Positions 3,861-22,646 of a stretch of DNA of 52,981 bases are shown one piece after another. Source of the DNA: a bacterium DOLZORAL124_64_63 (GTDB taxonomy: Bacteria; Krumholzibacteriota; Krumholzibacteriia; LZORAL124-64-63); NCBI GenBank assembly GCA_002747875.1, contig PDQT01000295.1, forward strand, positions 1 to 52,981, read 5' to 3'. Position numbers and translations under genes: made by a program. Under the pieces are notes generated by a model. It saw only the letters and a list, made by a program, of their open reading frames with translations. It did no database searches and was not told the DNA's origin. The stretch's first letter is position 1. Each line of letters starts with the position of its first letter.

Positions 3861-3950
3861 TACAACTTATTTGATTGAATGCGCTTGGGAAATAACGTAG
3901 GATGCGGGCAGGTTGTCTGTTTTATTTTCCCTTCCTTGAAGGAGTTCACA

Positions 3951-5882: not shown

Positions 5883-5924
5883 AAGAAGCCCGATTAAAAC
5901 CGATTTCACCCGACGGCAAAGGGG

Positions 5925-6455: not shown

Positions 6456-6819
6456 GGTCGTTCCTTCAATGCGTTGGAAGATTGCGGGCTATACCGGCGG
6501 CGAATAAAAGAAGAAATCATTCCTTCCTGTTTCGCCGTTCCGCCCAATATTAGTACTTGACCCGGCGAGGGCAATAACATAAATAAGGGATGCCAAACTT
6601 TAATGTTTCCCCTGACGATCCACATGGATGGTTTGCTTCATGGTCTTTGGTATTGCGGATTTGCTGTCGAAACCCTCATCATGCCCTGATGCCGCCCATG
6701 CGGGATCTGATGCCGTTTCGTGGAAAACGCCGACCCCTCGGGCCCATTTTTTTTCCCCTCCCATTAAGACTGGTCTAACAAAAAAAGGAAACACTAATAA
6801 TTCGCGCCCTTGTCGCCGC
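6456..6819. promoter_or_regulatory. divergent intergenic region that must hold the promoters of the DtxR-like gene and the TonB-dependent receptor operon
   Basis: A 364-bp, visibly AT-richer gap between divergent starts (6455 minus, 6820 plus). I could not recognise a convincing operator or riboswitch by eye. Confidence 0.4.
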
Positions 6820-8949
6820 ATGGATCCTGTTCGGCGCGGGGTCGTCGCGGTTCAGAGAAAAGCCGCCATGGCGGTTCTGTTAGGGCTTCTGGTTCTGACG
6901 GGGATGGCGTTGCAGCCTTCTGCCGGCATGGCCGCCACCACGGTGCAGGACTCCTCCCGGGCGACCATGATCGACACTTTGGTCGTTACCGCGGAGCAGG
7001 TGGACCCGTTCCGCAGCAAAACCCGCATCACCAGTGATCGGGACCAGGAGGAGCTGCAACGCTTCATGCCGCTGAATCTGGCGGATGCCTTGGTTTCCAT
7101 TCCCGGTGTCGATGTGCAGAAGACGGGGCCCTGGGCCGCCCGACCCACGGTGCGTGGCCTGTCGGGTAACCGGGTGCTGGTGCTGGTGGACGGGGTGCGG
7201 CTTAATTCCAGCCGGGGGCATGGTGCCCAACCCGGCATCGTGGGCATGGAAGCGGTGGAAAACGTGGAAGTGTCCATGGGCGCGGCCAGCACCGAACACG
7301 GGACCGACGCCATGGGCGGGGTGGTGGATATCGTCACGCGCCGGCCCCTGCTAGCGCCCCTGAACATGGTCGAAGGCACGGTCACGTCCAAGGGCGAAGA
7401 GCCCGGCGGAGCCGTCCTGCTCAGCAGCGTTCTGCGTTACAAGACCCCCCATTTCGGGATCGAGGCCACCGGCGGGCTGTCTCGTCTGAGCGCCCTGGAA
7501 ACGGCCAACGGCAAGGTGGACAACAGCGGCTATCGCCAGGAGAACTACGGGATCCGGGGCGAGGTGGGCTTCGGCGCCATGAACATGGACATCCAGCATA
7601 CCTATGGCGCGGCCAAGGATGTCGGTCTGCCGGCTTTCGCCTCGCCGGCCGGCGGCAGCGCCCTGTATCCCCTGCGGGATCGGCGTCTGACCCGTTACCA
7701 GATCGATGTGCAGGGGGAAGGTTGGCGGCCGTCGTTCTCCTTGATGGGGGCCCATCAGGATTACCTGACGCGCTTCATCGAGACCACCGTCGACAGCACC
7801 TTCCGTCACGACCGTCTTTTCACCATCAACACCAACGTGGACAACCAGGAGATCACCTCCAGCACCAGCACGCTGGAGCCTTCGCTGGTCTTCGAGGGGG
7901 CGGTGCGGGCCCGCATTTTCGGGCAATACCACCACGACGAGACCAAAGGGCCCGGCCACAGCGTGCTGACCCAGAATTTCGTGCGCGCGGGCATTGTCTC
8001 GGTTCAGGAATCCGAAAGCGAGAACGTTCCTCCGTCGTCCCGCAAGGGTTATTCGGGCGGGGTCAGCCTGCTGGTCCCCTGGTCGGTGGCCCAGGTGGAG
8101 GGCGGGATCCGCTACGACAGCTTCCAGACCAAGGCCGATACCACCGCGGTGAGCACCACCCATGTCCAGGACCTGAAAGAACACGCCACCAGTTATTCCC
8201 TGGGCCTGAGCCGGAAATTCACCACGCGGGGCGGCGTGGGCTGGCAGCCCTACCTGTCCTTCAACACCGGGTTCCGCAGCCCCAACCTGGATGAGCGCTA
8301 CTTCAACGGCTTCATCCACGGCGGTCTGTGGGTGTTCGGAAACCAGGACCTGGATCCGGAAATCAGCAGATCCTACGAGGCCGGTTTCCTGGCCACCGAT
8401 CTGTTCGACGGCAAGGTCAAAAGCCTGCGGGCGTCGTTCTATCGCTCCAATGTGGATGATCTGATCACGCTGCGCTACATGGGGCAGCTTTATCTGGTGC
8501 CGCGCTTCCAGTATGTGAACATCAGGAACGCCCGCATCGATGGCATGGAATTGGCGGCCATCCTGAGGTATGGCCCGGCCCGGCTGGACCTAGGGGCCTC
8601 GTTCCCGCACGGCAAGGATCTGGATACGGGAGAACCCATTTCCGATGTGGGGCGCACCAGCCTGAGCGCCAGGATGTCCGTGCCCCTGTCCCGGGGCGGC
8701 CTGCGGCCCACCCTTTCTTTCCGCTTCCGCTGGTTCGACAAGGTGGAGGACATCAACGAGAAGCTGAACACGGACCCGGTCTCCACCGCCTCGGTGGAAC
8801 TGGTGGGCTACTACCGCAGCCTGCGCGGGGCCATCGCCATCAAGAACCTGTTCAACCGTTATTACGCCCAGCAACTGAGCATCATCCCGGAGCCCGGCCG
8901 CACCGTGGCCATCTCCGTGAGATCCGATTTCTACTCGTTCCTTGACTGA
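6820..8949 (+). CDS. TonB-dependent outer-membrane receptor
   Basis: Signal-like MAVLLGLLVLTGMALQPSAGMA. Plug region DTLVVTAE ... LADALVSIPGVDVQKTGPW ... VRGLSGNRVLVLVDGVRLN, followed by a long beta-barrel-type sequence. The start could be 6820 or 6868. Confidence 0.85.
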   Translation: MDPVRRGVVAVQRKAAMAVLLGLLVLTGMALQPSAGMAATTVQDSSRATMIDTLVVTAEQVDPFRSKTRITSDRDQEELQRFMPLNLADALVSIPGVDVQKTGPWAARPTVRGLSGNRVLVLVDGVRLNSSRGHGAQPGIVGMEAVENVEVSMGAASTEHGTDAMGGVVDIVTRRPLLAPLNMVEGTVTSKGEEPGGAVLLSSVLRYKTPHFGIEATGGLSRLSALETANGKVDNSGYRQENYGIRGEVGFGAMNMDIQHTYGAAKDVGLPAFASPAGGSALYPLRDRRLTRYQIDVQGEGWRPSFSLMGAHQDYLTRFIETTVDSTFRHDRLFTINTNVDNQEITSSTSTLEPSLVFEGAVRARIFGQYHHDETKGPGHSVLTQNFVRAGIVSVQESESENVPPSSRKGYSGGVSLLVPWSVAQVEGGIRYDSFQTKADTTAVSTTHVQDLKEHATSYSLGLSRKFTTRGGVGWQPYLSFNTGFRSPNLDERYFNGFIHGGLWVFGNQDLDPEISRSYEAGFLATDLFDGKVKSLRASFYRSNVDDLITLRYMGQLYLVPRFQYVNIRNARIDGMELAAILRYGPARLDLGASFPHGKDLDTGEPISDVGRTSLSARMSVPLSRGGLRPTLSFRFRWFDKVEDINEKLNTDPVSTASVELVGYYRSLRGAIAIKNLFNRYYAQQLSIIPEPGRTVAISVRSDFYSFLD

Positions 8950-8971
8950 CGAGAGACGAAGGAGAACGCCC

Positions 8972-10924
8972 ATGTTTTGTCATATTGATCGCCAATGGTC
9001 GCCGCTGCCGCTGATGGTCGCGGCTCTGGTTATGGTCGGGATCGGCTCGGCCGAGGCCCGTACCCGGCCCAACGTGGAAGGGCGCTTGGTGCAGGACGTG
9101 CTCCACGGTTCCTTCCCCGGCATGGCCGATGTGGCCGTGGACCGGTCAGCGCCCGCCCCTCTGCCGGACGGGGCGCATCTTCTGGGCGAGACCTACTACG
9201 ATCTCCAGGACATGGGTTCGCTGGGCTCGCGGATCGTCTGGGCGCCGGACGGTACCCTCCACGTGGTTTTCATGGAGGATTTCTGTGAAGAAGACCCCGT
9301 CGTGGGTTGCCCCCCGGACCTGAGCCTGCCCAATCCCTACCCCATGCGGGGCATGGCCCTGTACACGCGGGACACGGACGGAGTCTGGAGCGATGCCCGG
9401 CGGGCCGCCGACCCCTCGATCCGGGATTGCTGCGTGACCGAGATCTTCGGGGGCTTCGGCACCCTGGGCCTGACGAACGACGGCCGCGCCATGGTGGCCC
9501 AGCACATGAACGAGGACGGCTGCGACCTGCGCGGCGATCTCTACATCCAGAAAACCCAGGGCAGTACGGAGTTCGACGCTTATCTGGGCGAGATCACCCC
9601 CGACAGCTATCTCTTCCCCCAGGTGACGGCCAACCCGGACGGCTCCTACACCCTGTTCGGTGAGATCGCGGAATACGGCTCCTACAACGAGGTGGATCAC
9701 TTCCGTCTGGCTTATCTACCCGCCGAGGGCGAGGAATTCGTCTGCCCCACCGGCTGGCAGTTCAGCTCCTGGAAGTCCGTGGAGTCCGCGGTGCCGCGCT
9801 CCCTGTTCCAGGACGGCACGCCCGCCTTCCCGTCCATGGCCGGCGCCGAGGACGGCCGGGTCGGTGTGGCCTTCGGCGATTTCGGCGGCAATGTTTTCCT
9901 GCTGGAATCGTCCGACGGCACCTTCGAACCCAACACCCTGACCCTGACGGAAATCACGTCCTACCAGGAGAGCGACATCGTCAGTGGGGACGAGACGTCC
10001 CAGGAATACCGCTCCTACGTCAACTGCGACCTGGCCTACAACGGGAATGAAGCCCACGTGGTCTGGTCCGAGATGCAGGCCCGCAACGAAGGCGGCACCA
10101 TCTACTTCTATGACTACCGCAGCCGGATCATGCACTGGAGCCCGAGCAGCGGGATTTCGGTGGTGCGTCAGGTCCAGCCCGGCGAGGCGGACCAGTTCGC
10201 CAACCTGGATGGGGACCTGCCCGGTCCCATGGCGGGCTTCAACCACATCTCCGTCAGCTGGCCCCAGGTGGGATTCAACGAGTCGGGCACCCAGACCATC
10301 GTGGCCTGGCTGCGCTTCGTGGATGCCGAAGTGGATCCCTCGGCGGACGGGGGTTCGCCGGGCATCGTCACCGGTGTGGGTTACGGGGACATCGTGGGCA
10401 GTGTCTCCAGCGACGGGATGAGTTGGTCGGAACAGCAGAACTTCACCCAGACGCCTACCACGGATGAGCGCTTCTTCTCGCTGGCCGACATCAACCCTGA
10501 AGGCAAGGTCCTGCTGGCCTTCCAGGCTTCGGCCACGGATCAGGCCGGGTGCGCCGCCATCGGCGACCGGGGGGCGACCCCGGGCAACCTGGTGCGGAAC
10601 CTGGCGTTCCTGGAGCGGGATCTGGACAGCTCCGTGGCCGCGGCCCCGGGTATGGCCTTGAACGGACCTCGGCTGGCGGTGTCGCCCAATCCGTCCGGCG
10701 GGTCCATGCGTTTCGCCCTTACGGGGGCGGAGGATCAGACTCTTGGCCATGTCGCCATCTATTCGGTGCGCGGCGTGCTGGTGTCTGAATTCGACCTGAG
10801 AGGAGGATATGCCACCTGGAATATGCTTAATGCTCTCGGAGAACCCGTTCCGGCGGGTGTTTATTTCGCCAAGGTCCGGTCCCCGCAGGGAACCGCGACC
10901 CGAAAAATCGTCGTTGTTCGTTAA
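8972..10924 (+). CDS. secreted hypothetical protein with a T9SS-type (Por / FlgD-Ig-like) C-terminal sorting domain
   Basis: GGAGA RBS before the ATG at 8972 and signal-like LPLMVAALVMVGIGSAEA. The C-terminal approximately 80 aa read LAVSPNPSGGSMRFAL ... VAIYSVRGVLV ... AGVYFAKVRSPQGTATRKIVVVR, typical of T9SS CTDs. The body is unassigned, possibly beta-propeller-like. Confidence 0.65.
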   Translation: MFCHIDRQWSPLPLMVAALVMVGIGSAEARTRPNVEGRLVQDVLHGSFPGMADVAVDRSAPAPLPDGAHLLGETYYDLQDMGSLGSRIVWAPDGTLHVVFMEDFCEEDPVVGCPPDLSLPNPYPMRGMALYTRDTDGVWSDARRAADPSIRDCCVTEIFGGFGTLGLTNDGRAMVAQHMNEDGCDLRGDLYIQKTQGSTEFDAYLGEITPDSYLFPQVTANPDGSYTLFGEIAEYGSYNEVDHFRLAYLPAEGEEFVCPTGWQFSSWKSVESAVPRSLFQDGTPAFPSMAGAEDGRVGVAFGDFGGNVFLLESSDGTFEPNTLTLTEITSYQESDIVSGDETSQEYRSYVNCDLAYNGNEAHVVWSEMQARNEGGTIYFYDYRSRIMHWSPSSGISVVRQVQPGEADQFANLDGDLPGPMAGFNHISVSWPQVGFNESGTQTIVAWLRFVDAEVDPSADGGSPGIVTGVGYGDIVGSVSSDGMSWSEQQNFTQTPTTDERFFSLADINPEGKVLLAFQASATDQAGCAAIGDRGATPGNLVRNLAFLERDLDSSVAAAPGMALNGPRLAVSPNPSGGSMRFALTGAEDQTLGHVAIYSVRGVLVSEFDLRGGYATWNMLNALGEPVPAGVYFAKVRSPQGTATRKIVVVR

Positions 10925-10975
10925 AACGGGTTCGGCCGGAGACCGGCCGTGCCTTTGACCATTGGGAGGTCAACC

Positions 10976-11728
10976 ATGAAATCGCAACTCTCGAAAATTC
11001 TTCTGATCGCCATGCTCACTCTTGGTGTCGCCAGCTACGCTGCCGCTCAAGCCACCATTCAGGAAACCGTTCCCGGTGGGGAATTGGAACTGGAATGGGT
11101 CAGCGGCTTCGGTGTGCCTCTGCTCCTGACCGGGGAAACCCTGGAATCCGGCGATGTCGGCTACGACAACCCCTCCGGCGACCACACCGTTCTCGTGCTG
11201 GAAAACAACCCTCCCATGATGGGCGGGCTGGGCATGGCCATGACCAACCCCGGTGACACCAGCGACTACGTCTGGGAAGGCTGGGTCAACACCGGTGACG
11301 CTTCCACCCGGCGGGGCCTGCTGTTCCGGGGGAACCCCGAGATCCAGTTCACCACGTCCTACCAGTTCGTTCTGGAGCCCGGCCTGCTGCAGCTGAAGTT
11401 CCGCAAGATGACGGGCCATCGTTCCCAGGACATCGTTGCTTGGTACACCTCGGATACCCCCAGCGGCATGCCCGGCGAGAACGAGTGGCATCACCTCAAG
11501 GTCGAGGCTCGCGGCTCCAACTTCCGCTTCTGGTACGACGACTACGAGCTGACCCAGGGCACCCCGGTGGAAGACACCGATCTGCTGTCCGGCTGGGTTG
11601 GCATTCTCAACTTCCGCTATAACTTGGGCGGCGTCCAGGTCCTCTTCGACGACCTGATGATGACCGATCTCGGCGTCGTGGCCACCACGAACGAGTCCTG
11701 GGGCAGCGTCAAGAGCCTGTACCGCTAA
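10976..11728 (+). CDS. secreted LamG/ConA-like (DUF1080-like) protein
   Basis: GGGAGG RBS and signal peptide MKSQLSKILLIAMLTLGVASYAAAQA. ENEWHHLKVEARGSNFRFWYDDYEL resembles the DUF1080/LamG core. Ends in WGSVKSLYR. Confidence 0.5.
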   Translation: MKSQLSKILLIAMLTLGVASYAAAQATIQETVPGGELELEWVSGFGVPLLLTGETLESGDVGYDNPSGDHTVLVLENNPPMMGGLGMAMTNPGDTSDYVWEGWVNTGDASTRRGLLFRGNPEIQFTTSYQFVLEPGLLQLKFRKMTGHRSQDIVAWYTSDTPSGMPGENEWHHLKVEARGSNFRFWYDDYELTQGTPVEDTDLLSGWVGILNFRYNLGGVQVLFDDLMMTDLGVVATTNESWGSVKSLYR

Positions 11729-11828
11729 TTTTCCATACCGGACACGGGGACGGCCCATCAGCGGGCCGTCCCCGGATTCCTTTTCGTCCCCGCCGTCGCG
11801 CGGGGGATGATGGTTCCACGGGAGTACC

Positions 11829-12572
11829 ATGTTTGCTTTGCCGCAGATCCTGTCTAGCGTCGGATCTATTTTTCGTGACCACCCGGCGGGGGTTTTCGCC
11901 CTGGCTCTGGGCGTTCTGGTCCTTTTGCAATCCGCCTTCGCCCTGGGTCGGGCGCGGGTGGTCATCGGTTTGCCCCTGGTCTGGGGGTTGCTGGTCCTGG
12001 CGGGATTCCTGCTGAACCCCTTCGCGGACGCCACCACCTTGCCGGATCTGCAGGCCAAGCTGATGAGTTTCGAGACCCTGACCATGATCTGCGTGTGGCA
12101 GTTGGTGCTGGCCTGCCTGAGCCTGTGGCTGGGTTTGAATTTGACCGGGCCGGGGGCGGGCAAGCGCTCTCTGGGCCTCTTTGTCGTCCACGTGATACCC
12201 GCTCCCCTGATCCTGGTGGCGATGCTGCTGGTGGAACAGTCCATGCTGACAGGATCGGTGGGGGCGGATCCGGAAATGGTCGGTTTCCAGGTGGGGTTCT
12301 TCACCGGAACGCTGCTGCTGTTGCTGACCCTGCCGGCGCTGCGCTGGCGGCGCGTCGCCAATTTCATCCCGCATAGCTTGCTTTCGGTGACTCTTGCCCT
12401 GGCGTGCATGCTGGTGCCCGGCTTGCAGGATCCCGCGCCGGCCACTCAGGCGGCCACCGATTTCGACACCTTGATCCCGTTGGGGATGGTGCTCCTGGGA
12501 GCCGCCCTGGTGGGGGCTCTGGGCTGGTGGCGCGCGCCGCGCACCCTTATCGATTCCCACGAAAAACTCTGA
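11829..12572 (+). CDS. polytopic integral membrane protein, unassigned
   Basis: About six hydrophobic segments, e.g. GVFALALGVLVLLQSAFALG, VIGLPLVWGLLVLAGFLL and VIPAPLILVAMLLV. Its stop is 14 nt before the next gene start, in the same operon. Confidence 0.55.
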   Translation: MFALPQILSSVGSIFRDHPAGVFALALGVLVLLQSAFALGRARVVIGLPLVWGLLVLAGFLLNPFADATTLPDLQAKLMSFETLTMICVWQLVLACLSLWLGLNLTGPGAGKRSLGLFVVHVIPAPLILVAMLLVEQSMLTGSVGADPEMVGFQVGFFTGTLLLLLTLPALRWRRVANFIPHSLLSVTLALACMLVPGLQDPAPATQAATDFDTLIPLGMVLLGAALVGALGWWRAPRTLIDSHEKL

Positions 12573-12586
12573 GGAGGATGTCCACC

Positions 12587-13258
12587 ATGGGCACTTTAAG
12601 CCATATATTTTCCATCATTTCCACCAGTCTGATGATCCCGGTGATGCTGGGGCTGCTCATCTGCCTGCTGCGCGCCATGATCGTGGCGGGCCAGACCCTG
12701 CGGGAACACATGGTGCGCCGCGGAACCGAAGAGGCCCTGGCGGAGTATTCCACCGCTTTGGAAACAGAAGACGCCGCGCTGCCCGAGCTGAAAGGGCAAG
12801 GACTGGTGACCGCCACCCTGCGGAGCCTTGCGGACCTGACCTCCCGGGACGAGGTCCTGGTGGAGCAGCGTCTGCAGAAGACGGAACTGGTCTGGCAGAG
12901 CGAACTGGAGAAGTTGCGGGTGCTGATGCGCTTCGGTCCTGCTCTGGGGCTGATGGGCACCCTGATTCCCCTGGGCCCGGCCCTGGTGGGGCTGGCCGCG
13001 GGCAACCTGGAAATGATGTCCAGCAATCTGGTCATCGCCTTCGCCACCACGGTGGTGGGGCTGCTGATCTCCACGCTGTCGCTGGGCCTGCTGAGCCTGA
13101 AGAAGGCCTGGTACCAGAAAGATTCCCTGCTGATCAGTTTCGCGGCCACCCGGCTGGCGGAGCGTCAGGCCGCCGGGCTGCGGGCGGTTCAGGACAAAGG
13201 GCTTTTGGCGGCCGCGGCTTCCGCCGGCGGTGCCTGCACCCAGGGGGATGACTCATGA
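12587..13258 (+). CDS. MotA/TolQ/ExbB-family proton-channel protein
   Basis: RFGPALGLMGTLIPLGPALVGLAAGN ... NLVIAFATTVVGLLIS matches the ExbB/TolQ signature (LGLLGT ... AL.TT..GL). GGAGG RBS 8 nt upstream of the ATG at 12587. Confidence 0.75.
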   Translation: MGTLSHIFSIISTSLMIPVMLGLLICLLRAMIVAGQTLREHMVRRGTEEALAEYSTALETEDAALPELKGQGLVTATLRSLADLTSRDEVLVEQRLQKTELVWQSELEKLRVLMRFGPALGLMGTLIPLGPALVGLAAGNLEMMSSNLVIAFATTVVGLLISTLSLGLLSLKKAWYQKDSLLISFAATRLAERQAAGLRAVQDKGLLAAAASAGGACTQGDDS

Positions 13259-13608
13259 GCTTCCAGCCCGGTCTGCGCCGCATGCGCTCCGCGCAGCTTT
13301 TCGATGAGGGCGAAGAGAGCGATCCCTTGGCCGGCTTGGCCAACCTCTTCGACCTGGCCATGGTCTTTGCCGTGGCCCTGATGGTGGCTCTGGTTTCCTT
13401 CCTGCGGGTTCCGGCCCTGTTGCAGGACAAGGACTATACGGTGATCACGAATCCCGGCCAGGAAGACATGGAGATCGTCGTCAAAGAAGGTCAGGAGATC
13501 AAACACTACGAGGCCACCTCCGAGACCGGAGTAGGCCAGGGCGAACTGTTGGGGCAAGCCTACCGCTTGCCCGATGGTCGCGTCGTTTACGTTCCCTCAG
13601 AGGAGTAA
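13255..13608 (+). CDS. small single-TM protein, ExbD/TolR-like topology (resembles the DUF2149 family)
   Basis: ATGA start/stop overlap with the ExbB-like gene. DPLAGLANLFDLAMVFAVALMVALV is followed by a soluble domain. This family co-occurs with CobN-like and ExbB-like genes in hmu-type loci, as I recall. Confidence 0.55.
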   Translation: MSFQPGLRRMRSAQLFDEGEESDPLAGLANLFDLAMVFAVALMVALVSFLRVPALLQDKDYTVITNPGQEDMEIVVKEGQEIKHYEATSETGVGQGELLGQAYRLPDGRVVYVPSEE

Positions 13609-13615
13609 TCCCATA

Positions 13616-16600
13616 ATGTCCGCTGGTACCCGGAAATTGACCGCTGTTCTCGCTGTGTTGGCCCTTTGCGTGGTGGCCGGCTTGTTGATTTACAACACCA
13701 CTCTGCGCAAGGTCCGTCTGGCCTTCGTCGGTTTTCCCGACACGCAATGGGCCAACTTCGAAGAGGTGGGGCTGGACACGCCCTACTCCCTGCACAAGCT
13801 GGATCGGGAAGATCTGGGCGACCTGCGGCTGGAGAAATACCACGCCACCCTGATCTGGGGCATGGGCTTCAACCCGGATCCTTACCAGAAGGCCAATCTG
13901 GAACGGTCGATGCGCAAGGGAGCCAACCTGGTGATGGTCATGGCCACCAGCAAGGACGTCCTGGATATGGCCAACACCGGGCAGGAACGCCAGGACATGG
14001 TGGCGGAGTATCTGAAGCACGGGGGCCACGACAACCTGCACGCCATGATGGATTACCTGGCCCATGAGTTGGCCGGGCGCCGCGCCAAGCCCGCCCCGGT
14101 GGTGGAAAAACCGGAGTCGGGTTTCTTCCATCTGGGGGATGCCATGTTCGCTTCCCTGGAAGAGTATGAAGCCTATCTGGATGAAATCAGGCCGAACCTG
14201 CGGGCGGATGCGCCCAAGCTGGCCCTCGTGGGGGCGTTCGTGAACCCGGGCAACCGTTTCGAGCGGGTGCACGCGGACCGGCTGATCCAGGAATTCGAGA
14301 AACGCGGCGTGCGGGTGTATCCCGTCTTCGGCTTCCGGGAGTCGCCGGAGCTGCTCAAGGAGGCCAACCCGGACCTGGCCCTGGTCATGCCCCATGGCCG
14401 CCTGGCGGAGAACAACCAGGTGCCCGAGATGCTGGCGGAAATGAACATTCCCTGCATCGGCGCGTTGAGCCTGCTGGCGGACCGGGAAACCTGGCTGGGC
14501 GATCCCCAAGGTCTGGCCGGCGGTTTCCTGAGCCAGTCCATCACCATGCCGGAGCTGGACGGGGTCATCGAGCCGGTGGTCATCGCCTCGCGGGATATGA
14601 ACGAGCGCGGCTTGCAGGTGCCCACGGTGATCGAAGACCGGCTGGAGCGCCTGACGGCCCGCACCATGAACTGGCTGGAACTGCGCCACAAGCCCAACGC
14701 GGAAAAGAAAGTGGTCATCGTCTACTACAAATCCCCGGGCATGGCGGCGGTGGCCGCGGCGGGGCTGGAGACGGCGCCTTCGCTGTGGAATCTGCTGAAG
14801 CATCTGCAGGATGAGGGCTATGACCTGGGCGGGCAGCTGCCCGCAGACGCGGACGCCCTGTATGACCTGATTCAGACCCGGGGCAAGACCCTGGGCCAGT
14901 GGGCCATCGGCGCCTTCGAGACCTTCCTGGAGGAAGCGGATCCGGAGCTGATTCCCGCCCAGACCTACGCGCGCTGGTTCCAGGACGCGTTGTCCCCGGC
15001 CCGTCAGAAGGAAACCCTCGATCTGTGGGGCGCCATTCCCGGCGACCGCATGGTCACCACGGTGGACGAGGAACCCTACCTGGTGGTCAGCCGCATCCAG
15101 CTGGGCAACGTGGTGATCATGCCGCAGCCCACCGTCGGAACGGGCGATGACGACGAAGACGAAATCGCCACCATCCACGGCACGGACCAGGCTGCGCCCC
15201 ATTTCTACCTGGGGGCCTACCTCTGGGCGCGGAACGGTTTCGGGGCCGACGCCATCGTCCACTTCGGGACCCACGGTTCCCTGGAATTCACCTACGGCAA
15301 AAGCGCCTGCATGAGCCGGGACTGCTGGCCGGATATCCTGATTGGCGATGTGCCCCACATCTACCCCTACATCATCAACAACGTGGGTGAGGCGCTGGTG
15401 GCCAAGCGGCGCTCTTACGGCGTGACGGTGTCGCACCTGACGCCCCCCTTCACGGAGTCCGGCATTTACGGGGATCTGGTGATGCTCCAGGAGAAGCTGC
15501 ACACCTTCAACACGGAAACCGATCCCATGCTCAAGCTGGAGACCCGGCGCACGCTGAGCCGTCTCGTGCACGAGTACGACATGGCCCGCGATCTGAACCT
15601 GCCGCCGGAGGCGGGCACGGATCGGCTGCTGACGGACGACGAGCTGAGTAGGCTGACCAACCTGATCCACGAGCTGGAAGCCGCCACCATCACCGATGGT
15701 CTGCATGTGCTGGGGCGGCCTTTCACCGAGGAGCAGATCCTGTCCACGGTGACCCTCATGTTGGGGGAACCGGGTTATAAGAGGCTGCGGGCGGTCACGG
15801 GTCGTCCCGATGATCCCGCGGTGCAGGATGGGGCGCGGGACCTGGCCCGGAGCCTGGTCACCGGAGTGCTGGCGGGAGACATCCAGGCGGAGCAGTTCTT
15901 CTCCGCCGATGAGCTGGCCGTCCTGCGGGATCCCCACTGGGGAGAGGACCCGAACCGCGCCGCCCAATTGGCCGCTTTGAAGGCCGAGGCCAAGGAGGCG
16001 GGTCTGCCGCACGACGTTCTCTGTGGTTGCCCCGGCTGCATCGGTTGGGTGGCGTCCCATGAGGAACTGGCGCAGCGCATCATCGCCGCCTCGGAAGAGG
16101 GGACGGCGGAGGTCGCGGAGGCGGACGATCATGGGGATGGACATGAGCACGGGCACGCCGCTGAGCAGGTGACCTTGGAGTCTTTGAAGGCCGAAGCCAA
16201 GGAGGCGGGTCTGCCGCACGATGTTCGCTGTGGCTGTTCTCGCTGTGCCGGTTGGGTGGCTACGCACAAGGAACTGGCCACTCGCATCACCGAGGCCACG
16301 AACCATAAGGCCGCGGCTGCTCACGGGCAGGGCCATGGGCAGCAGCAGGTTGCCGAGCACGTGTCTTTGGAATCTTTGAAGGCCGAGGCGAAGGCCTCCG
16401 GCCTGCCGCATGACGTTCTCTGTGGCTGTTCTGACTGTATTGACTGGGTGGCTACGCATAGGGATCAGGCTGCCCGTATCATCGCGGCCACGAATCGGAA
16501 GGCCGCGGAAGATCTCGGGCAGGTCCATGAACAGCAGCAGGTTGCCGAGCACGTGTCTTTGGAATCTTTGAAGGCCGAAGCGAAAGCCGCGGGCTTGCCG

Positions 16601-18574
16601 CACGATGTTCTCTGTGGCTGTCCTCGCTGTGTCGGCTGGGTGGCTGCGCATAAGGAGTTGGCGACCCGCATCACCGAGGCCACGAACCGAAAAACCGTGG
16701 AGGTTGCAGCCGCGGACGATCATTCGCATGGGCCGTCAGGTCATAGTCATAATGGACCGTCGGGCAAACCGGTGGTCAAATCGTCGAGCAAGCCGTCGAG
16801 CAAACCGTCGGGCAAGCCGATTGATGTGGACCATTTCTGGGGTAGCTCGGCCCAGGACCGGCCCCAAATTCCCGAAGATCGCGCGGTGCGGCTGGGTTTT
16901 CTGCAGGTGCTGGATGATATCCAGAATTACGCCCAGGGGCTGAGGGAATCTCCTCGCCGGGAGTTGGAGGGCGTGACCCGGGCTTTGAGCGGCGGTTACA
17001 TCCAGCCGTCGTCCGGAGGCGATGCCCTGTTCAACCCGGCTGCCGTGCCCACGGGCCGCAATCTTTACTCCATCAACGCGGAAAAGACCCCCACCGAGGA
17101 AGCCTGGCGGGTGGGCAAGATGCTGGCGGATCAGGTCCTGGCGGACCACCGCGCCCGCACCGGGAATTGGCCGCGGCAGGCGGCGTTCTCCCTCTGGGGC
17201 GGCGAGTTCATCCGGAGCAAGGGTTCCACCATGGCGCAGGTCATGTACCTGATGGGGGTGCGCCCGCTGCGCAATTCCCGGGGCACCGTCTACGATGTGG
17301 AGCTGATCCCCTCGGAAGAGCTGGGTCGTCCCCGCATCGATGTCCTGGTCCAGACCTCGGGTCAGTTCCGGGACGCCGGAGCCAGCCGCATCACCTTGCT
17401 GGACAAGGCGGTGCAGATGGTGGCCGCGTTGCCGGATGAAGAGTATCCCAACTACGTCCGGGACGGCGTGGCCGCCACGGAAATGGCGCTCAAGGAAAAC
17501 GGCATGGCCCCGCAGCGCGCCCGGGAACTGGCCACGGCCCGCATCTTCGGTTCGGCCGCCAACCAGAGCTACGGCGCCAACATCATGCGCATGGTGGAGT
17601 CGGGCGACACCTGGGAGGATTCCGCCGAGGTGGCCGAGCGCTACCTCCAGAACATGGGCGGAATTTACCGCGATGCCGACAACTGGGGCACCTATGAAGA
17701 GGGCGTCTTCGCCGCGGCCATGCAGGGCACGGAGCTGGTCATCCAGCCGCGGTCGTCCAACACCTGGGGCCCCCTCAGCCTGGACCATGTGTACGAGTTC
17801 ATGGGCGGCCTGACCGCCAGCATCCGGCACACCACCGGGAATGACCCCACGGGCTATTTCAGCGACCGGCGCGCCCGGGGACAGGCCAAGGCCACCAACG
17901 CCGTGCAGGCCATCCGCGAAGAGGCCCGCACCAAACTCTGGAACCCCCGTTATCTGGAAGGTTTGCAGGGCGAAGGCGCGGCGGCCGCCGCCGGTTTGAC
18001 CGAATCGGTGCGCAACATGTACGGCTGGAACGTGATGCAGCCCTCGGCCATCGACGAGACCATGTGGGACGAAACCTACGAGGTGATGGTGGAGGACAAG
18101 CACGGCCTGAACCTGCAGGAGTTCTTCGAGGAAGTGAACCCGTACGCCTTGCAGGATATGTCGGCGGTCATGCTGGAAACGGCCCGCAAGGGGATGTGGT
18201 CCCCGGATCCCGAGGTGCTGCAGAACCTGGCGGAACTGCATGCTGATCTGGTGGCCCGCTACGGCGCGGCCTGCTCTCGTGAGACCTGCAACAACGCGAA
18301 GCTGCGGGAATTCCTGAATGCTCAGCTCACGGCTCCGGGCAGCACGGTGCCCGACGCGCTGATCCAGGACTACGCGGCTAACCTGTCGGCGGTTCTGGAA
18401 TCTTCCCAGCCCTTGCCCAATATCGAAGGGCTCGAGCTGGAAGAGAGGATCGAGACGGTGGAAGAGGAGGTCCTGGCGGCCAGCCCTCTGCAGAATGTGA
18501 TGCTGGCGGGGGCCGTGGTGATGATGGCTCTGGTTTCTCTGTTCTGGGGGGCGCGGGGGCAGAAGCAGGAATAG
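13616..18574 (+). CDS. CobN/ChlH-family (class I chelatase large subunit; HmuS-like) protein, membrane-anchored, with a repeat insertion
   Basis: CobN hallmarks: IVHFGTHGSLEFTYGK ... DVPHIYPYIINNVGEALVAKRRSYGVTVSHLTPP, and LSGGYIQPSSGGDALFNPAAVPTGRNLYS ... LGRPRIDVLVQTSGQFRD. N-terminal TM LTAVLAVLALCVVAGLLIY and C-terminal TM VMLAGAVVMMALVSLFWG. Confidence 0.85.
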   Translation: MSAGTRKLTAVLAVLALCVVAGLLIYNTTLRKVRLAFVGFPDTQWANFEEVGLDTPYSLHKLDREDLGDLRLEKYHATLIWGMGFNPDPYQKANLERSMRKGANLVMVMATSKDVLDMANTGQERQDMVAEYLKHGGHDNLHAMMDYLAHELAGRRAKPAPVVEKPESGFFHLGDAMFASLEEYEAYLDEIRPNLRADAPKLALVGAFVNPGNRFERVHADRLIQEFEKRGVRVYPVFGFRESPELLKEANPDLALVMPHGRLAENNQVPEMLAEMNIPCIGALSLLADRETWLGDPQGLAGGFLSQSITMPELDGVIEPVVIASRDMNERGLQVPTVIEDRLERLTARTMNWLELRHKPNAEKKVVIVYYKSPGMAAVAAAGLETAPSLWNLLKHLQDEGYDLGGQLPADADALYDLIQTRGKTLGQWAIGAFETFLEEADPELIPAQTYARWFQDALSPARQKETLDLWGAIPGDRMVTTVDEEPYLVVSRIQLGNVVIMPQPTVGTGDDDEDEIATIHGTDQAAPHFYLGAYLWARNGFGADAIVHFGTHGSLEFTYGKSACMSRDCWPDILIGDVPHIYPYIINNVGEALVAKRRSYGVTVSHLTPPFTESGIYGDLVMLQEKLHTFNTETDPMLKLETRRTLSRLVHEYDMARDLNLPPEAGTDRLLTDDELSRLTNLIHELEAATITDGLHVLGRPFTEEQILSTVTLMLGEPGYKRLRAVTGRPDDPAVQDGARDLARSLVTGVLAGDIQAEQFFSADELAVLRDPHWGEDPNRAAQLAALKAEAKEAGLPHDVLCGCPGCIGWVASHEELAQRIIAASEEGTAEVAEADDHGDGHEHGHAAEQVTLESLKAEAKEAGLPHDVRCGCSRCAGWVATHKELATRITEATNHKAAAAHGQGHGQQQVAEHVSLESLKAEAKASGLPHDVLCGCSDCIDWVATHRDQAARIIAATNRKAAEDLGQVHEQQQVAEHVSLESLKAEAKAAGLPHDVLCGCPRCVGWVAAHKELATRITEATNRKTVEVAAADDHSHGPSGHSHNGPSGKPVVKSSSKPSSKPSGKPIDVDHFWGSSAQDRPQIPEDRAVRLGFLQVLDDIQNYAQGLRESPRRELEGVTRALSGGYIQPSSGGDALFNPAAVPTGRNLYSINAEKTPTEEAWRVGKMLADQVLADHRARTGNWPRQAAFSLWGGEFIRSKGSTMAQVMYLMGVRPLRNSRGTVYDVELIPSEELGRPRIDVLVQTSGQFRDAGASRITLLDKAVQMVAALPDEEYPNYVRDGVAATEMALKENGMAPQRARELATARIFGSAANQSYGANIMRMVESGDTWEDSAEVAERYLQNMGGIYRDADNWGTYEEGVFAAAMQGTELVIQPRSSNTWGPLSLDHVYEFMGGLTASIRHTTGNDPTGYFSDRRARGQAKATNAVQAIREEARTKLWNPRYLEGLQGEGAAAAAGLTESVRNMYGWNVMQPSAIDETMWDETYEVMVEDKHGLNLQEFFEEVNPYALQDMSAVMLETARKGMWSPDPEVLQNLAELHADLVARYGAACSRETCNNAKLREFLNAQLTAPGSTVPDALIQDYAANLSAVLESSQPLPNIEGLELEERIETVEEEVLAASPLQNVMLAGAVVMMALVSLFWGARGQKQE
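15974..16760 (+). repeat. four in-frame tandem repeats (207, 192, 192 nt spacing) encoding Cys/His-rich modules inside the CobN-like CDS
   Basis: The anchor tctttgaaggcc recurs at 15974 (gctttga), 16181, 16373 and 16565. The modules read L(K)AEAK(E/A)(A/S)GLPHDV(L/R)CGC(P/S)xC(I/A/V)xWVAxH(E/K/R)(E/D)(L/Q)AxRI. They are separated by His-rich linkers (DDHGDGHEHGH, HGQGHGQQQ, DDHSHGPSGHSH). Confidence 0.9.
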
Positions 18575-18966: not shown

Positions 18967-19383
18967 GTGACAGCGTGGTACTTCGATCTGGAGGAACCCA
19001 TCTCTGCTATCGAGATGACCCCTGGTTCGGCTGACAATCACAATTTCGGATTGGCGTTTGATAATTTTTCGCCTTCTTCGATTCCTTTTTATCCCATTTG
19101 CCATGCCGGTGGGCCTTATGAAATTGAAATCGGGGTGCCGGTACAGTTTTCAGGAGAGGATTCCATGGACCCAGATGGGGTCATTGTCTCCTATGCTTGG
19201 ACTTTCGGCGACGGTACGACGTCCTCTGAGGTATCGCCTGTTCATGTATTTCAGGAGCCGGGCGATTTTTCCGTGGAGCTTTGTGTGACGGACAATGATG
19301 GCAATGAAACCTGTTGCCAGAGTGATCTTGTGGTGCCGGCTCAGGAGGCCAGTTGGGATGGGATAAAAGCTTATTATCGGTGA
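18967..19383 (+). CDS. PKD-domain ORF, possibly a 5'-truncated remnant
   Basis: VQFSGEDSMDPDGVIVSYAWTFGDGTTSSEVSPVHVFQEPGDFSVELCVTDNDGNE is a canonical PKD repeat. GTG start, no signal peptide, markedly lower GC and different third-position usage than its neighbours. Ends in WDGIKAYYR. Confidence 0.5.
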   Translation: MTAWYFDLEEPISAIEMTPGSADNHNFGLAFDNFSPSSIPFYPICHAGGPYEIEIGVPVQFSGEDSMDPDGVIVSYAWTFGDGTTSSEVSPVHVFQEPGDFSVELCVTDNDGNETCCQSDLVVPAQEASWDGIKAYYR

Positions 19384-19403
19384 CATCTCTCCTCCTTTGG
19401 GAT

Positions 19404-19445
19404 CAAAGGGCCGGGTCCTCATTGCGGGCTTGGCCCTTTGTTTTG
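19404..19445 (+). terminator. hairpin plus T-run after the PKD ORF
   Basis: caaagggcc (19404-19412) pairs with ggccctttg (19432-19440), followed by tttt. Confidence 0.5.
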
Positions 19446-19577
19446 GGCGGGTTGAAACGGAAGGTGAAAATAGTGTAGACAAAGCGAAAGACCTGTGGTT
19501 TGCTGGCCTTTCGAAAAGTAGCCTCCAGAGAACAGCCATCACCGTCAGCAGCCGTGGCTCAAGGCCCCACCCCCAAA

Positions 19578-20117
19578 ATGATCCCAGAAAAACAAGCCCC
19601 CAATTTCTCCAACCTGGCAGAGCAGGAAGATTTCCCCGCCCTATACACCGAGCTGCGCACCCTGGCCGGCCGCTACATGAGCCGGGAACGCGCCGACCAC
19701 ACCCTGCAGCCCACCGCCCTGGTCCACGAACTTTTCCTGCGCCTGGAGGGCAGCGCGGGGCTAACCCTCAAAGGCCGGGCCCATTTCATGGTGGTCGCGG
19801 CCCGCACCATGCGCCGCATCCTCATCGACCATGCCCGCGCCCATGCGGCCAAGAAGCGGAAAAACCAGGGGAAAGTCAGTTGGCTGGAGCTGCAGGATTT
19901 TACGGTCATCGATTCCCCGGGTCGGTTTCTGGATCTGGAGAAATGCTTGAATAGGCTGTCCCAAGTCGACGCCCGCGCTGCCGCCATCATGGAATTGCGT
20001 TTCTTCGGAGATCTGGATGTGGGTGAAATCGCGAAAGCGTTCAACATTTCGGAACGTCTGGTCCGGCAGGAAATCGTTCATTCCCGGGCGTGGCTGCTGA
20101 GCCAGATGGGATCCTAG
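19578..20117 (+). CDS. ECF-type RNA polymerase sigma factor (kinase-associated 'HTLQPTALVHE' subgroup)
   Basis: YTELRTLAGRYMSRERADHTLQPTALVHELFLRL is the hallmark of the ECF sigma group usually paired with Ser/Thr kinases. The C-terminal region-4 HTH reads DVGEIAKAFNISERLVRQEI. Start set at MIPEKQ; uncertain. Confidence 0.75.
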   Translation: MIPEKQAPNFSNLAEQEDFPALYTELRTLAGRYMSRERADHTLQPTALVHELFLRLEGSAGLTLKGRAHFMVVAARTMRRILIDHARAHAAKKRKNQGKVSWLELQDFTVIDSPGRFLDLEKCLNRLSQVDARAAAIMELRFFGDLDVGEIAKAFNISERLVRQEIVHSRAWLLSQMGS

Positions 20118-20144
20118 CCTTTCTCCGGCCGGCCCCTTTCAAGA

Positions 20145-22646
20145 TTAACCCCCTTGCAGAGCCAAGCGCAATTCCTGCCGCCTCTCCCGCAGGATACGAA
20201 ACAATCGCCGATCATCTTCCCGCAGATTCCCCGCCAGCACCTGCTTGATCTGGTCCAGCACCTTGCGGGATCGCTCATCCGCTCCAGCGGCGCGCGTCCT
20301 CCTGACGGCCAGTCTGGCCTCGGTCGGCAACCTTCTTTTGGCCTCGAAAACAAAATCCGCGCGGGGACAGATTTCCGCGGCTCGGTCCAGCGCTTCCGCG
20401 GCCTGATCCAGCCAGGCGGCCGTTCCGTCCTGGTCGAACCTGGTCAGGAAAAGCTCGGCCAGTTCCTGATGCAACCGGCTGCCGGCAAACGGGCTGGGGC
20501 CGGTCTGGTTTTCCGCGCTCAGTTTCTGAAGAGCCCGAATATCCCGTTCCAGATCCTCCTGATGCAGCCCCATTTCTCGGCCACGCCGATGGGCCCGCGC
20601 CAACAGGACCCGGCTGTTCAAGAATCCCCACCGCAACCCGGCCTCCTCCTGAACGGAACAGGCCCGGTTGAATAACTCGTACGCTTGGTTCAGCGCCGCC
20701 GGATCCTCTCCCATTTCCGCCACCAGCAGTTGCGCCTGCCCCCAGCCTCGCAAAAGGGAACCATAGGCGTCCGGAACCAGTCGAATGTTCCCGATACTGT
20801 CACTGCGGGCGAACCAAACCAGTGAGGATCGCACCATTTCCAGGCTGTCCGCCGCCGCGCCCCAGAGGGAGCGGTACCTTCCGTTGTCGTTGTAGGCCAG
20901 GCACATGTTGAGACGTTGGTTGTGCGCGTCCGGCCGATAGGAAATGGCCGTGGAATCGGCCCAAATCTGGGCCAGGGCGCTTTGCATATACATCTGGGCC
21001 ACCCGGTAGTTGGACCGGGGGGTCACGAAATTGGCCAGGGCCGCCGCCGCCAGGGCCCGCCCGCCATAGGCCTGGCTGCGGGCCTGGAGAGCAATGCGCG
21101 CGGTGATGACCGATGTGGAATCCAGAGCCGCGAAGGACGCATCATCGAAGGGCACGTCTCCGCACGTCTTGAAGAAGCGGTTGGCGGCTTTGTAGCGGGC
21201 GGGATCGAACTCCAGGCCGCCCAGGAAGTACTGAGCTTCTCCCATGCGCCAGCGCGCGTACCGGTTCAGGGCGTTGTGCTCGGGAAGATCAGGCTGCTGC
21301 CGCAGCAGGTCCAGGGCTTGGGACAGGCTGTCGACGGCAGCCAGGTATCCCTCATGGCCGCGCGGCGCGATGTGCAGGTTGTTGTCGGCGCTGTCCAGCA
21401 AGGCATAGATAGAGTGACGGTGATCGGAGGCGGCCGCCGGCTCTCCCGTGAGATAGGAGACGAAGAACCAGCCCAGCAGCCCCAGAAGCAGCATACCCAC
21501 GGCCCGCAGAGGCGTTCGGGGCACTCCTGTCCGCAATTTCCCGAGGAGGCGCGAGGCCGGTCCGGGCACATCGACGTGGAGTTTGTTCCCGACCGGCAAG
21601 GCTTCCAGATCTTCCGCCAGGGTCTGCGCGTCGGCGTACCTTTGCTGCGGATCCGGGGCCAGGCAATGGGCCACCACGGCATCCACCGCGGGCCCCAGAT
21701 CGGCCTTTTGGCGGGATGGGGGCGTGGGCTTGGCGGCGATCACCGCCAGCAAAGCCTGATGCAGGGGAAATTCCGGCACCGGGTAAGGAAACTCTCCGGC
21801 CAAAACGGTGTGGATGATCAGCCCCAGCGCGTAGATATCGCTGGCGAAAGTGGCCTCCGCGCCCTGCGCCATTTCCGGGCTCATGTACTTGACGGTCCCG
21901 ATCAGATGGGAGCTGTCAACCGTCAGGGTCGGCAGCGTCTCGGAAGGGTTGATCAGCCGGGAAATACCGAAATCCAGCACACGAGGACGGGCGTCCTCAT
22001 CAACCAGGATATTGCTGGGCTTCAGGTCTCGGTGGACGATGCCCCGCTCATGGGCATGGGCCACCGCCCGGCTGATTGCGGCTAGAATCTTCAGGCGATC
22101 CTGCAGCTGGAAAGGCGTCTTGGCGCAGTATTGATCAAGGGAGCAGCCCCGCACATGCTCCATGGCCAGGTAGGCGACATCGCCCCCCTCCGCCTCTTCC
22201 ACTCCGGCTTCATAAAGACGCACGATACCGGGATGATCCAGCTGCCCGATTATGGTCGCCTCACGCTGGAATCGCTGGTGTAGACCGGTCCCCATGGCGC
22301 CGGCGTGGATCACTTTGAGGGCGACCTCGCGGTTGTTGTGGGGGTCCTGGGCCAGAAAGACCGTGCCCATGCCCCCGCCACCCAGGCGTTCGAGAATCTG
22401 AAAGGAACCCACGGCGGTGGGCAGGGGCGGCTCCGGTCCGGCCGAGGCGGATGTTGCCGTGTCCGTGAAGTCTTCTTCGGCACGCCACAACGCGCGCACT
22501 TGGTCCTGGAGAGAGGGGTTCCCCGCCGCGGCCGCCGCCAGGAATTGTTCCCGTTCTGCGGGCTCTATTTCCAGAGAGGCCAGGAAAATCTTTTTGGCCC
22601 GACGGTAAAGCTCATTGGGGTTGTTTCCTTTAGGGTCGGCTCCCAT
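20145..22646 (-). CDS. Ser/Thr protein kinase with one TM segment and a large C-terminal helical-repeat (TPR-like) domain
   Basis: GGGGMGTVFLA ... ALKV, HRDLKPSNILV, DFGISR and GTVKYMSPE. The N-terminal LYRRAKKIFLASLEIEPAEREQFL module is typical of ECF-sigma-partner kinases. TM segment AVGMLLLGLLGWFFVSYL. Confidence 0.85.
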   Translation of the reverse strand: MGADPKGNNPNELYRRAKKIFLASLEIEPAEREQFLAAAAAGNPSLQDQVRALWRAEEDFTDTATSASAGPEPPLPTAVGSFQILERLGGGGMGTVFLAQDPHNNREVALKVIHAGAMGTGLHQRFQREATIIGQLDHPGIVRLYEAGVEEAEGGDVAYLAMEHVRGCSLDQYCAKTPFQLQDRLKILAAISRAVAHAHERGIVHRDLKPSNILVDEDARPRVLDFGISRLINPSETLPTLTVDSSHLIGTVKYMSPEMAQGAEATFASDIYALGLIIHTVLAGEFPYPVPEFPLHQALLAVIAAKPTPPSRQKADLGPAVDAVVAHCLAPDPQQRYADAQTLAEDLEALPVGNKLHVDVPGPASRLLGKLRTGVPRTPLRAVGMLLLGLLGWFFVSYLTGEPAAASDHRHSIYALLDSADNNLHIAPRGHEGYLAAVDSLSQALDLLRQQPDLPEHNALNRYARWRMGEAQYFLGGLEFDPARYKAANRFFKTCGDVPFDDASFAALDSTSVITARIALQARSQAYGGRALAAAALANFVTPRSNYRVAQMYMQSALAQIWADSTAISYRPDAHNQRLNMCLAYNDNGRYRSLWGAAADSLEMVRSSLVWFARSDSIGNIRLVPDAYGSLLRGWGQAQLLVAEMGEDPAALNQAYELFNRACSVQEEAGLRWGFLNSRVLLARAHRRGREMGLHQEDLERDIRALQKLSAENQTGPSPFAGSRLHQELAELFLTRFDQDGTAAWLDQAAEALDRAAEICPRADFVFEAKRRLPTEARLAVRRTRAAGADERSRKVLDQIKQVLAGNLREDDRRLFRILRERRQELRLALQGG

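Follow-up and report, generated by a model that had tools for sequence, protein, structure and literature searches.

What is the role of four tandem cysteine- and histidine-rich modules in the middle of a large protein of the CobN superfamily? The question is raised by a 52,981-nucleotide (nt) stretch of DNA from bacterium DOLZORAL124_64_63 (contig PDQT01000295.1; hereafter, the window), in which one gene encodes such a protein; an earlier description based on the letters of the DNA (hereafter, the sequence-only reading) had called it a CobN/HmuS-like chelatase carrying a possible metal- or cluster-binding array. We propose, with somewhat more confidence than doubt, that the gene encodes an HmuS-type heme dechelatase that closes a heme-uptake operon and that the array is a metal-stabilized multivalent arm for the capture of heme or iron. 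The folded Cys3His module in tandem is new; the enzyme type and the variable site in which the modules lie are known.

The body of the host protein (GenBank PID78890.1, 'hypothetical protein CSB20_12785') is spanned by the Pfam family PF02514 (CobN/Mg-chelatase; residues 145-1548, E = 1.1e-299), and it shares with CobN and ChlH (BchH) both this fold and the body motifs HFGTHGSLEF and GGYxxPxxGGD. All of its scores against the NCBIfam CobN and BchH equivalogs were below the respective cut-offs. When all solved structures were searched, the best relative was HmuS of Bacteroides thetaiotaomicron (hereafter, B. theta; PDB 9d26, 959 bits, E = 3e-287), with far lower scores for ChlH (~410 bits) and CobN (392 bits). 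The role of HmuS as the enzyme with which anaerobes extract iron from heme was established only in 2025, and the structures of HmuS (PDB 9d26/9p4s; Nath et al., EMBO J 2025; PMC12583661) identify Met-79/Gly-80 and His-254-Gly-Arg as the axial ligands of a head/neck heme (site 1), which are specific to HmuS, and His-538/Glu-577 and Asp-1208/His-1209 as the dechelation site. We aligned the protein of the window with 121 homologs (122 sequences, MAFFT) and found both sets of residues in place: M97/G98 and H274-G-R correspond to the site-1 ligands, and H567/E606 and D1404/H1405 to the catalytic dyads. The site-1 ligand columns hold Met in 95 of the 122 homologs and His in 105. Homologs of HmuS number more than 572 at E <= 1e-50. 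CobN and ChlH are soluble proteins that act with AAA+ partners, unlike the protein described here, which has a transmembrane anchor at each end. HmuS likewise carries N- and C-terminal transmembrane anchors, whereas the Met/His ligands of site 1 and the domain-IV insertion discussed below are absent from CobN and ChlH (PMC12583661). The C-terminal anchor of our protein aligns with the C-terminal hydrophobic segment of 9d26 and is followed by a short basic tail, GARGQKQE. Because of the two terminal helices, the short basic termini, and the published model of HmuS, the bulk of the protein probably faces the periplasm, in a Sec-type arrangement. A second database entry (P0006, 1652 amino acids (aa)) begins 14 codons downstream at MSAGTRKL (13616 versus 13574), which leaves the true start codon uncertain; both candidate starts lie ahead of the N-terminal transmembrane helix.

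Given that 9d26 is the best match, that the heme-ligand and catalytic residues are conserved, and that the operon includes a heme-type receptor, an ExbB protein, and a DUF2149 protein, the product is best read as an iron-removing HmuS-type heme dechelatase rather than a CobN/ChlH chelatase. The superfamily assignment of the sequence-only reading is therefore retained, and its term chelatase is replaced by dechelatase, which fits better. By most tests the protein belongs to the HmuS family, and it departs from the criteria of the HmuS study on two counts. One is the Met-rich insertion, taken up below; the other is identity to B. theta HmuS, which, judged on six Bacteroidota homologs, lies short of the value of at least 50% used there for a conservative set (PMC12583661). 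Identity to those six homologs is 37-39% over ~1340 aligned columns, the B. theta sequence itself being outside the set, and the nearest named homologs are from planctomycetes (Pirellulales, Gimesia, and others; 49-59% by local BLASTP). The conserved residues and the type of receptor suggest that heme is the substrate, and we word this conditionally since identity to Bacteroidota HmuS is no higher and a homolog of HmuY was not detected.

The array lies in a hypervariable stretch of the family. Column occupancy and identity in the alignment drop sharply between residues ~785 and ~1100 of the protein and are high on both sides, and the length of the intervening segment in the aligned family varies from 0 to 315 residues. 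HmuS from B. theta has a family-defining methionine-rich insertion (MRI) in domain IV, at residues 780-898, which contains 21 Met and is disordered in the cryo-electron microscopy map; the MRI is ~120 aa long in B. theta and 82 aa on average, and it occurs in all 680 operonic HmuS sequences examined (PMC12583661). HmuS residue 881 aligns with residue 1077 of our protein, and Bacteroidota homologs are Met-rich at the insertion site, a Met-rich insertion being found in 34 of the 121 aligned homologs. The alignment thus places the array at the MRI site of HmuS domain IV, a site already described, with new contents: folded His-Cys3 modules and His-rich linkers in an insertion of ~293 aa, as opposed to a disordered Met-rich thread. 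The statement of the sequence-only reading that such a module was unrecognized in characterized CobN, ChlH, or HmuS proteins accordingly holds for the contents, whereas the insertion site was known for HmuS. No Met occurs in the 315 residues from aa 785 to aa 1099, which hold 24 His and 12 of the protein's 18 Cys; His makes up 7.6% of this segment versus 1.9% of the remainder of the protein. A literature search for His-rich or planctomycete variants of HmuS found nothing relevant.

Insertions of other HmuS homologs hold recurrent short motifs amid low complexity (P0030-P0052 and P0071-P0119). The motif GGHPxWIPK was seen inside the insertions of 15 proteins, mostly from Bacteroidota, and DGxSGAT inside those of 13 proteins, mostly from Planctomycetota. 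Both may mark conserved contact or ligand sites within an insertion regarded as disordered.

Translation of 13574-18574 agrees with the four in-frame repeats reported earlier, which lie between the conserved halves of the protein (flanks HFGTHGSLEF, AKRRSYG, GGYIQPSSGGD, and PTGRN). LPHDV occurs at aa 811, 880, 944, and 1008 (nt 16004, 16211, 16403, and 16595), giving spacings of 69, 64, and 64 aa, and every copy reads LPHDVxCGCxxCxxWVAxH followed by AxRIxxA(T/S). Linkers of ~17-22 residues, rich in His, Gln, Asp, and Gly, separate the copies, and the His-rich stretches that had been pointed out (DDHGDGHEHGH, HGQGHGQQQ, and DDHSHGPSGHSHNGPSG) are all present, as is the SKP tail SSKPSSKPSGKP. 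Tandem Repeats Finder recovered the array as a 192-nt period (16163-16688, 2.7 copies, 80% matches, score 716) and, at the C-terminal end of the insertion, a 12-nt period that encodes the SKP tail (16782-16819, 3.2 copies). The 12-nt tract is likely to be prone to slippage, and its length could differ among strains. Across all six frames of the window, the motif C.C..C..W occurs at the four array sites only. The modules read CxCxxC(I/A/V), and His never follows the last Cys, so that they contain no CxxCH cytochrome motif; the other proteins of the operon also lack CxxCH, the attachment site of c-type cytochromes.

The module is an undescribed domain with no counterpart in Pfam, NCBIfam, or the PDB, which bears out the earlier impression that it was not annotated. 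No family in Pfam or NCBIfam, zf-HC2/ZAS and HMA included, scored above its curated cut-off on the module, and matches to NCBIfam were at chance level. A PDB profile search with the module likewise returned chance matches only, and Foldseek found nothing significant for it in the PDB (best TAZ2, E = 5.3, template-modeling score 0.32) or in BFVD (best E = 2.2). Several apparent matches were rejected. Pfam GYF_2 on the insertion (E = 3.8e-5, 23.8 bits, cut-off 25.8) was the sum of four weak repeats with no single stretch passing, and Zn-ribbon_GIR1 was sub-threshold (16 bits, cut-off 26). A match to RecA in the PDB profile search (apparent E = 9e-5) arose from a 16-residue likeness, AWLKDNPETAKEIEK, counted six times in concatenated RecA fusion chains; single RecA stretches alone gave E = 50-80.

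The module has a confidently predicted fold. An AlphaFold2 run on one module, using an eight-sequence alignment, gave a mean predicted local distance difference test score (pLDDT) of 95.8, with a helix at residues 2-11, a loop at 12-22 (GLPHDVLCGC), a second helix at 23-31 starting from CPGC, and a third at 33-45. In this model His16, Cys20, and Cys22 lie on the loop and Cys25 in the first turn of helix 2, a placement that would be typical of a metal knuckle. The same fold was repeated in a two-module model of units 3-4 (pLDDT ~90 each), in which linker residues 60-67 had pLDDT below 50 and the predicted template-modeling score was 0.45; from these two values the modules are predicted to behave like beads on a string, each independent of the next and flexibly linked. 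One His and three Cys at helix-loop junctions in a small all-helical unit are reminiscent of the TAZ domains of CBP/p300 and of the ZAS motif. The module spacing, H-x3-C-x-C-x2-C, nevertheless differs from the H-x3-C-x2-C of ZAS, the structural match to TAZ2 is non-significant, and TAZ and ZAS domains are cytoplasmic or nuclear, whereas the module is probably periplasmic. An iron-sulfur cluster is unlikely in a segment that probably faces the periplasm and whose 45-aa modules each offer three Cys and a single His.

The position of CPxC or CSxC at a helix N-terminus in all copies would also suit a thiol-disulfide center that helps to supply electrons for the reduction of ferric heme, a step needed by HmuS. 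We give such a redox relay very little credence: the predicted fold is all-helical and not thioredoxin-like, the third invariant Cys and the invariant His suit a four-ligand metal site better, two-electron thiol-disulfide couples are ill-matched to one-electron heme reduction as a matter of established chemistry, and close relatives do without the module.

The module is rare. A profile built from the four copies and run against 1.84 billion representative proteins had true matches only in P0001 and P0002 (E = 6e-7 and 8e-6); recovery by a window-only profile of two independent HmuS homologs carrying the module at the matching site indicates that it is not a chance likeness. Three further hits of the exhaustive profile search (P0003-P0005) were rejected as unrelated repetitive proteins. 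A full-length homolog search added P0008 and P0010 as carriers, and a degenerate DNA pattern for H-x-V-x-CGC-xx-C-xx-WV on metagenome contigs gave nine loci, one of them real (L010) and the other eight rejected as chance matches with stops in frame. Three other searches yielded little: a word-index homolog search with the whole insertion found no match, its list of at most 8000 candidates probably having been saturated by low-complexity words; the same kind of search with an eight-module profile found only the 71-aa fragment P0001; and a peptide-pattern scan of metagenomes for the module found nothing. In all, the module is known in six proteins, that of the window and five others, all HmuS homologs with the module at the identical site. 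P0008, P0010, P0002, and L010 each have one module, and four occur in the window protein alone. P0001 (71 aa) is the start of an HmuS C-terminal half on the 1.5-kb contig L002, which opens at the module and so holds at least one copy. Within positions 1-300 of this contig (JGI contig Ga0374082_1585704) an in-frame stop interrupts the His-rich tract (DAHH*HEDSHG), and the gene caller has accordingly annotated two genes, one of 71 aa ('ABC transporter substrate-binding protein') and one of 424 aa; the stop is either a sequencing error or a mark of a pseudogene.

Conservation takes in the putative ligands and other residues nearby. All eight copies in an alignment of five proteins share the pattern AKxxGLxHxVxCGCxxCxxWV, as does the copy in L010, the ninth; the pattern includes the His and three Cys of H-x3-C-x-C-x2-C. 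The sequence-only reading had counted three Cys plus His per module: the first His and the three Cys are indeed invariant, whereas the His of WVAxH is confined to the window copies and is Asn in every single-copy relative. A His tract follows the module in every carrier, long in four of them (in P0010 the 259-aa insertion holds 39 His) and shorter in L002, which speaks for a ligand-binding arm made up of the entire region. The closest relative, P0007, is 77% identical and has the same operon with no module; its site holds just a His tract, GHSHGPDGHSH..., that is homologous to the terminal DDHSHGPSGHSH of our protein. Copy number thus ranges from four in the window through one in four relatives to none in P0007; the insertion is lineage-specific and varies in number, a possibility raised in the sequence-only reading. 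In a rough neighbor-joining tree the module-free members of the same clade are P0007, P0009, which has essentially no insertion, and P0012, with an insertion of 26 residues. The simplest history, read from this crude tree, would be one module and a His tract in the ancestor of the clade, followed by losses and by expansion to four copies here. That P0007 keeps the operon with no module at all indicates that the array is accessory and dispensable for the core reaction.

These distributions bear on whether the modules handle a ligand. As purely structural zinc knuckles they would be rigid spacers or docking units, for the 660-aa type IX secretion system (T9SS) protein of the operon, the receptor, or another HmuS, with no hand-off of a ligand. 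The compact and confidently predicted fold agrees with this, as does the conservation of residues other than the ligands (AK..GL, WV), which is expected of a folded interaction module, and a variable copy number is likewise a trait of other tandem adaptor domains. We nonetheless think a structural role improbable, since the modules constantly co-occur with His-rich tracts at a site that otherwise holds Met- or His-rich low complexity, which points to chemistry rather than to a partner, and since the P0007 operon retains all the partners while lacking the module.

The repeats are not recent. At the DNA level the units share 61-77% identity, and no exact match between any two of them exceeds 47 nt, a length reached between units 3 and 4 (16340-16386 and 16532-16578), where the match covers the shared QQQVAEHVSLESLKAE; elsewhere these two units are ~77% identical. 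The stretch shared by repeats 3 and 4 that had been noticed earlier is therefore present, and the recent expansion read from it is at odds with the divergence of the units; as judged from the sequences, local gene conversion accounts better for the 47-nt identity. For the 41-codon cores, synonymous divergence (dS) is 0.45-1.2 and the ratio of nonsynonymous to synonymous divergence (dN/dS) is 0.13-0.34 (Nei-Gojobori), from which we conclude that the duplications are old and the cores are under purifying selection; the linker codons are relaxed (dN/dS 0.6-3). A site as variable as this one (0-315 residues), with simple repeats and with four copies in one genome only, might also have gained them by non-functional low-complexity expansion or by an error of assembly. 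Such an origin is highly improbable in view of the low dN/dS of the cores at saturating dS, the invariance of the His and three Cys across six proteins, and the confident fold, and misassembly in particular is unlikely because the units are so diverged that each can be assembled individually. The second entry, P0006, which may not be an independent record, has an identical array.

The dechelatase gene is the last of a cluster of seven genes on the same strand (6628-18574; Table 1). The receptor's best NCBIfam family is that of the heme/hemoglobin receptors (TIGR01785, E = 7e-59, 200 bits, below the cut-off of 317), and the DUF2149 gene lies directly upstream of the dechelatase gene and overlaps it. 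All seven genes are found in unchanged order around the closest homolog, P0007, in three independent assemblies (L013-L015; in L013 at 3124-10008), and the adjacency of ExbB and DUF2149 genes is also seen in more distant relatives (L001 and L003). Compared with the complete hmuYRSTUV set, a TonB-dependent receptor, an ExbB-like protein, and a DUF2149 protein are present as in the B. theta operon, together with a family-less membrane protein, whereas there is no hit to HmuY and the gene order differs, the dechelatase gene coming last. The T9SS-sorted and 259-aa proteins stand where the hemophore HmuY would be expected, and neither matches a heme-binding family; the T9SS-sorted protein, for which no match to the HmuY family was found, may be a surface or secreted partner. 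The ExbB open reading frame (ORF) as listed opens at GTG and overlaps the preceding gene by ~170 nt. Its true start is probably a Met at about nt 12578 (another lies at ~12587), since the product would then be close in size to the 203-aa homolog in L013.

Table 1 Features of the dechelatase gene and its operon in the window
Feature	Position (nt)	Strand	Basis or remark
TonB-dependent receptor, HmuR-like	6628..8949	+	plug and barrel domains
660-aa protein with T9SS type A C-terminal sorting domain	8942..10924	+	TIGR04183, 32.8 bits, cut-off 23
259-aa secreted protein	10949..11728	+	weak match: laminin-G / 3-keto-disaccharide-hydrolase-like fold
247-aa multi-pass membrane protein, no family match	11829..12572	+	occupies the expected HmuT-like position
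MotA/TolQ/ExbB-family channel, HmuU-like	12404..13258	+	PF01618, E = 6e-8
DUF2149 protein, HmuV-like, ExbD-type partner	13255..13608	+	PF09919, E = 3e-30
HmuS-family (CobN superfamily) membrane-anchored heme dechelatase homolog	13574..18574	+	single ORF, 1666 aa
N-terminal transmembrane anchor, aa 19-44	13628..13705	+	Kyte-Doolittle, 19-residue window, maximum 2.71
Whole variable insertion in domain IV, aa 790-1082, ~293 aa	15941..16819	+	boundaries from pairwise alignment with P0007
Module 1, aa 797-843	15962..16102	+	helix, GLPHDVLCGC loop, helix from CPGC, helix
Linker 1, His/Asp/Gly-rich, TAEVAEADDHGDGHEHGHAAEQ	16103..16168	+	
Module 2, aa 866-912	16169..16309	+	repeat alignment
Linker 2, AAAAHGQGHGQQQVAEH	16310..16360	+	
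Module 3, aa 930-976	16361..16501	+	repeat alignment; two-module AlphaFold2 model, pLDDT ~90
Linker 3, AAEDLGQVHEQQQVAEH, predicted flexible	16502..16552	+	pLDDT <50
Module 4, aa 994-1040	16553..16693	+	repeat alignment; two-module AlphaFold2 model
Terminal His-rich tract DDHSHGPSGHSHNGPSG and SKP low-complexity tail	16694..16819	+	
C-terminal transmembrane anchor, aa 1639-1660	18488..18553	+	Kyte-Doolittle, maximum 2.18

The surroundings of module carriers are not uniform. On L001 (1347-7660), a Pirellulaceae metagenome-assembled genome (MAG) contig that carries P0010, the upstream gene set is unlike that of the window: it includes a DUF1559/N-methyl pilin-like protein, a pyrroloquinoline quinone (PQQ) beta-propeller with an EF-hand, ExbB, DUF2149, and a 521-aa unknown protein, and no TonB-dependent receptor is present in the 7.7 kb upstream of the P0010 gene. 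Downstream of the operon in the window come a small PKD-domain ORF (18967-19383) and a gene for a PF07638-type extracytoplasmic function (ECF) sigma factor (19500-20117); beyond them the other strand carries, at 20145-22646, an 833-aa ORF that by eye resembles a Ser/Thr protein kinase. These three ORFs (18967-22646) could form a regulatory unit. The assembly is a MAG from a dolphin mouth, a host-associated niche in which heme is a plausible source of iron.

We propose the following mechanism for the dechelatase and its array. The enzyme would be held in the inner membrane by one transmembrane helix at each end, with its bulk in the periplasm, and the array would be this lineage's version of the exposed hypervariable insertion of domain IV, a string of beads replacing the Met-rich thread. 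Four independently folding three-helix modules of ~45 residues would be joined by flexible linkers, with the His-rich tract last, and each module would be stabilized by a single metal ion bound tetrahedrally by His-Cys3, with Zn(II) or Fe(II) as the simplest choices. Poised over the head/neck heme site, the arm could then act as a multivalent tether of soft ligands, catching incoming heme by axial His/Cys ligation, or released Fe(II), close to the enzyme and handing the cargo to the head/neck site or on to an Fe(II) importer; multiplication of the module from one to four would raise capacity or reach. In ZnuA a His-rich loop, and in CusF, PcoC, and CopC Met/His motifs, form flexible exposed segments that are thought to raise the local concentration of ligand. 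The likeness of the array to these segments is one of analogy, both being flexible and rich in soft ligands with no relationship in sequence; unlike them, the array adds folded Cys3His modules, and its cargo is likely to be heme or the iron of heme. The metal- or ligand-binding arm of the sequence-only reading is thus kept as the best account of the array, with binding itself worded as a prediction.

Which cargo the arm would carry is the harder choice. Heme iron is classically ligated at its axial positions by Met, His, or Cys, whereas free Fe(II) is bound poorly by Met. We favor capture and presentation of heme over pure storage of iron because the site holds Met, His, or Cys/His across the family and Met suits Fe(II) poorly; capture of released Fe(II) would be the second possibility. 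An array that acted solely as an acceptor or buffer of Fe(II) or another divalent metal would bind no heme; instead, Fe(II) set free by the enzyme would be kept safely on the arm until an importer in the inner membrane took it over. His and Cys are good ligands for Fe(II) and Zn(II), the array has four His-Cys3 sets and a total of 24 His, and the His tracts of the relatives look like metal-binding tails (HGDHDHRDHEHGDH...). A path of metal egress toward FeoB has also been postulated for HmuS, and the same study places the MRI above the head/neck heme site, ~30 Å from the catalytic cleft, where it may feed heme (PMC12583661). This last position speaks against a metal buffer, as do the Met-rich corresponding insertions of characterized HmuS and of the 34 homologs, Met being unsuited to free Fe(II), and the operon yielded no identifiable gene for a metal importer, feoB included. 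On balance we regard a pure metal buffer as unlikely, and the arm for capture of heme, or of its iron, remains our preferred explanation.

Several observations weigh against that explanation. AlphaFold folds the module confidently without any metal; P0007, with the same operon, has no module, and the insertion is all but missing from P0009; identity to Bacteroidota HmuS over the full length is low (37-39%), and the operon has no detected homolog of HmuY. The Met of the canonical MRI suits Fe(II) poorly, so that iron storage becomes less likely if the two arms are equivalent, and the functional equivalence of array and MRI is itself an assumption made by analogy. Three Cys per periplasmic module could, moreover, form disulfides or do redox chemistry. 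With these points in mind, we put forward only tentatively the further idea that the His-Cys3 unit is a new, autonomously folding mini-domain for binding heme or iron, which would have replaced the Met-rich insertion in a small lineage and there multiplied to four.

The module is a small addition to the catalog of metal-binding motifs rather than a new system, and it overturns nothing. It bears on the role of the HmuS insertion. The domain-IV site accepts varied soft-ligand contents, among them Met-rich threads, His-rich tracts, and one to four folded His-Cys3 modules, which favors an arm that handles ligands over a mere spacer, and the compact, confidently predicted fold makes such an arm tractable to experiment. 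If the tentative idea of a new mini-domain is correct, the domain-IV insertion of the HmuS family would be a general ligand relay with chemically interchangeable contents (Met, His, or Cys/His), and in the array this relay would for the first time have a structured form open to experiment.

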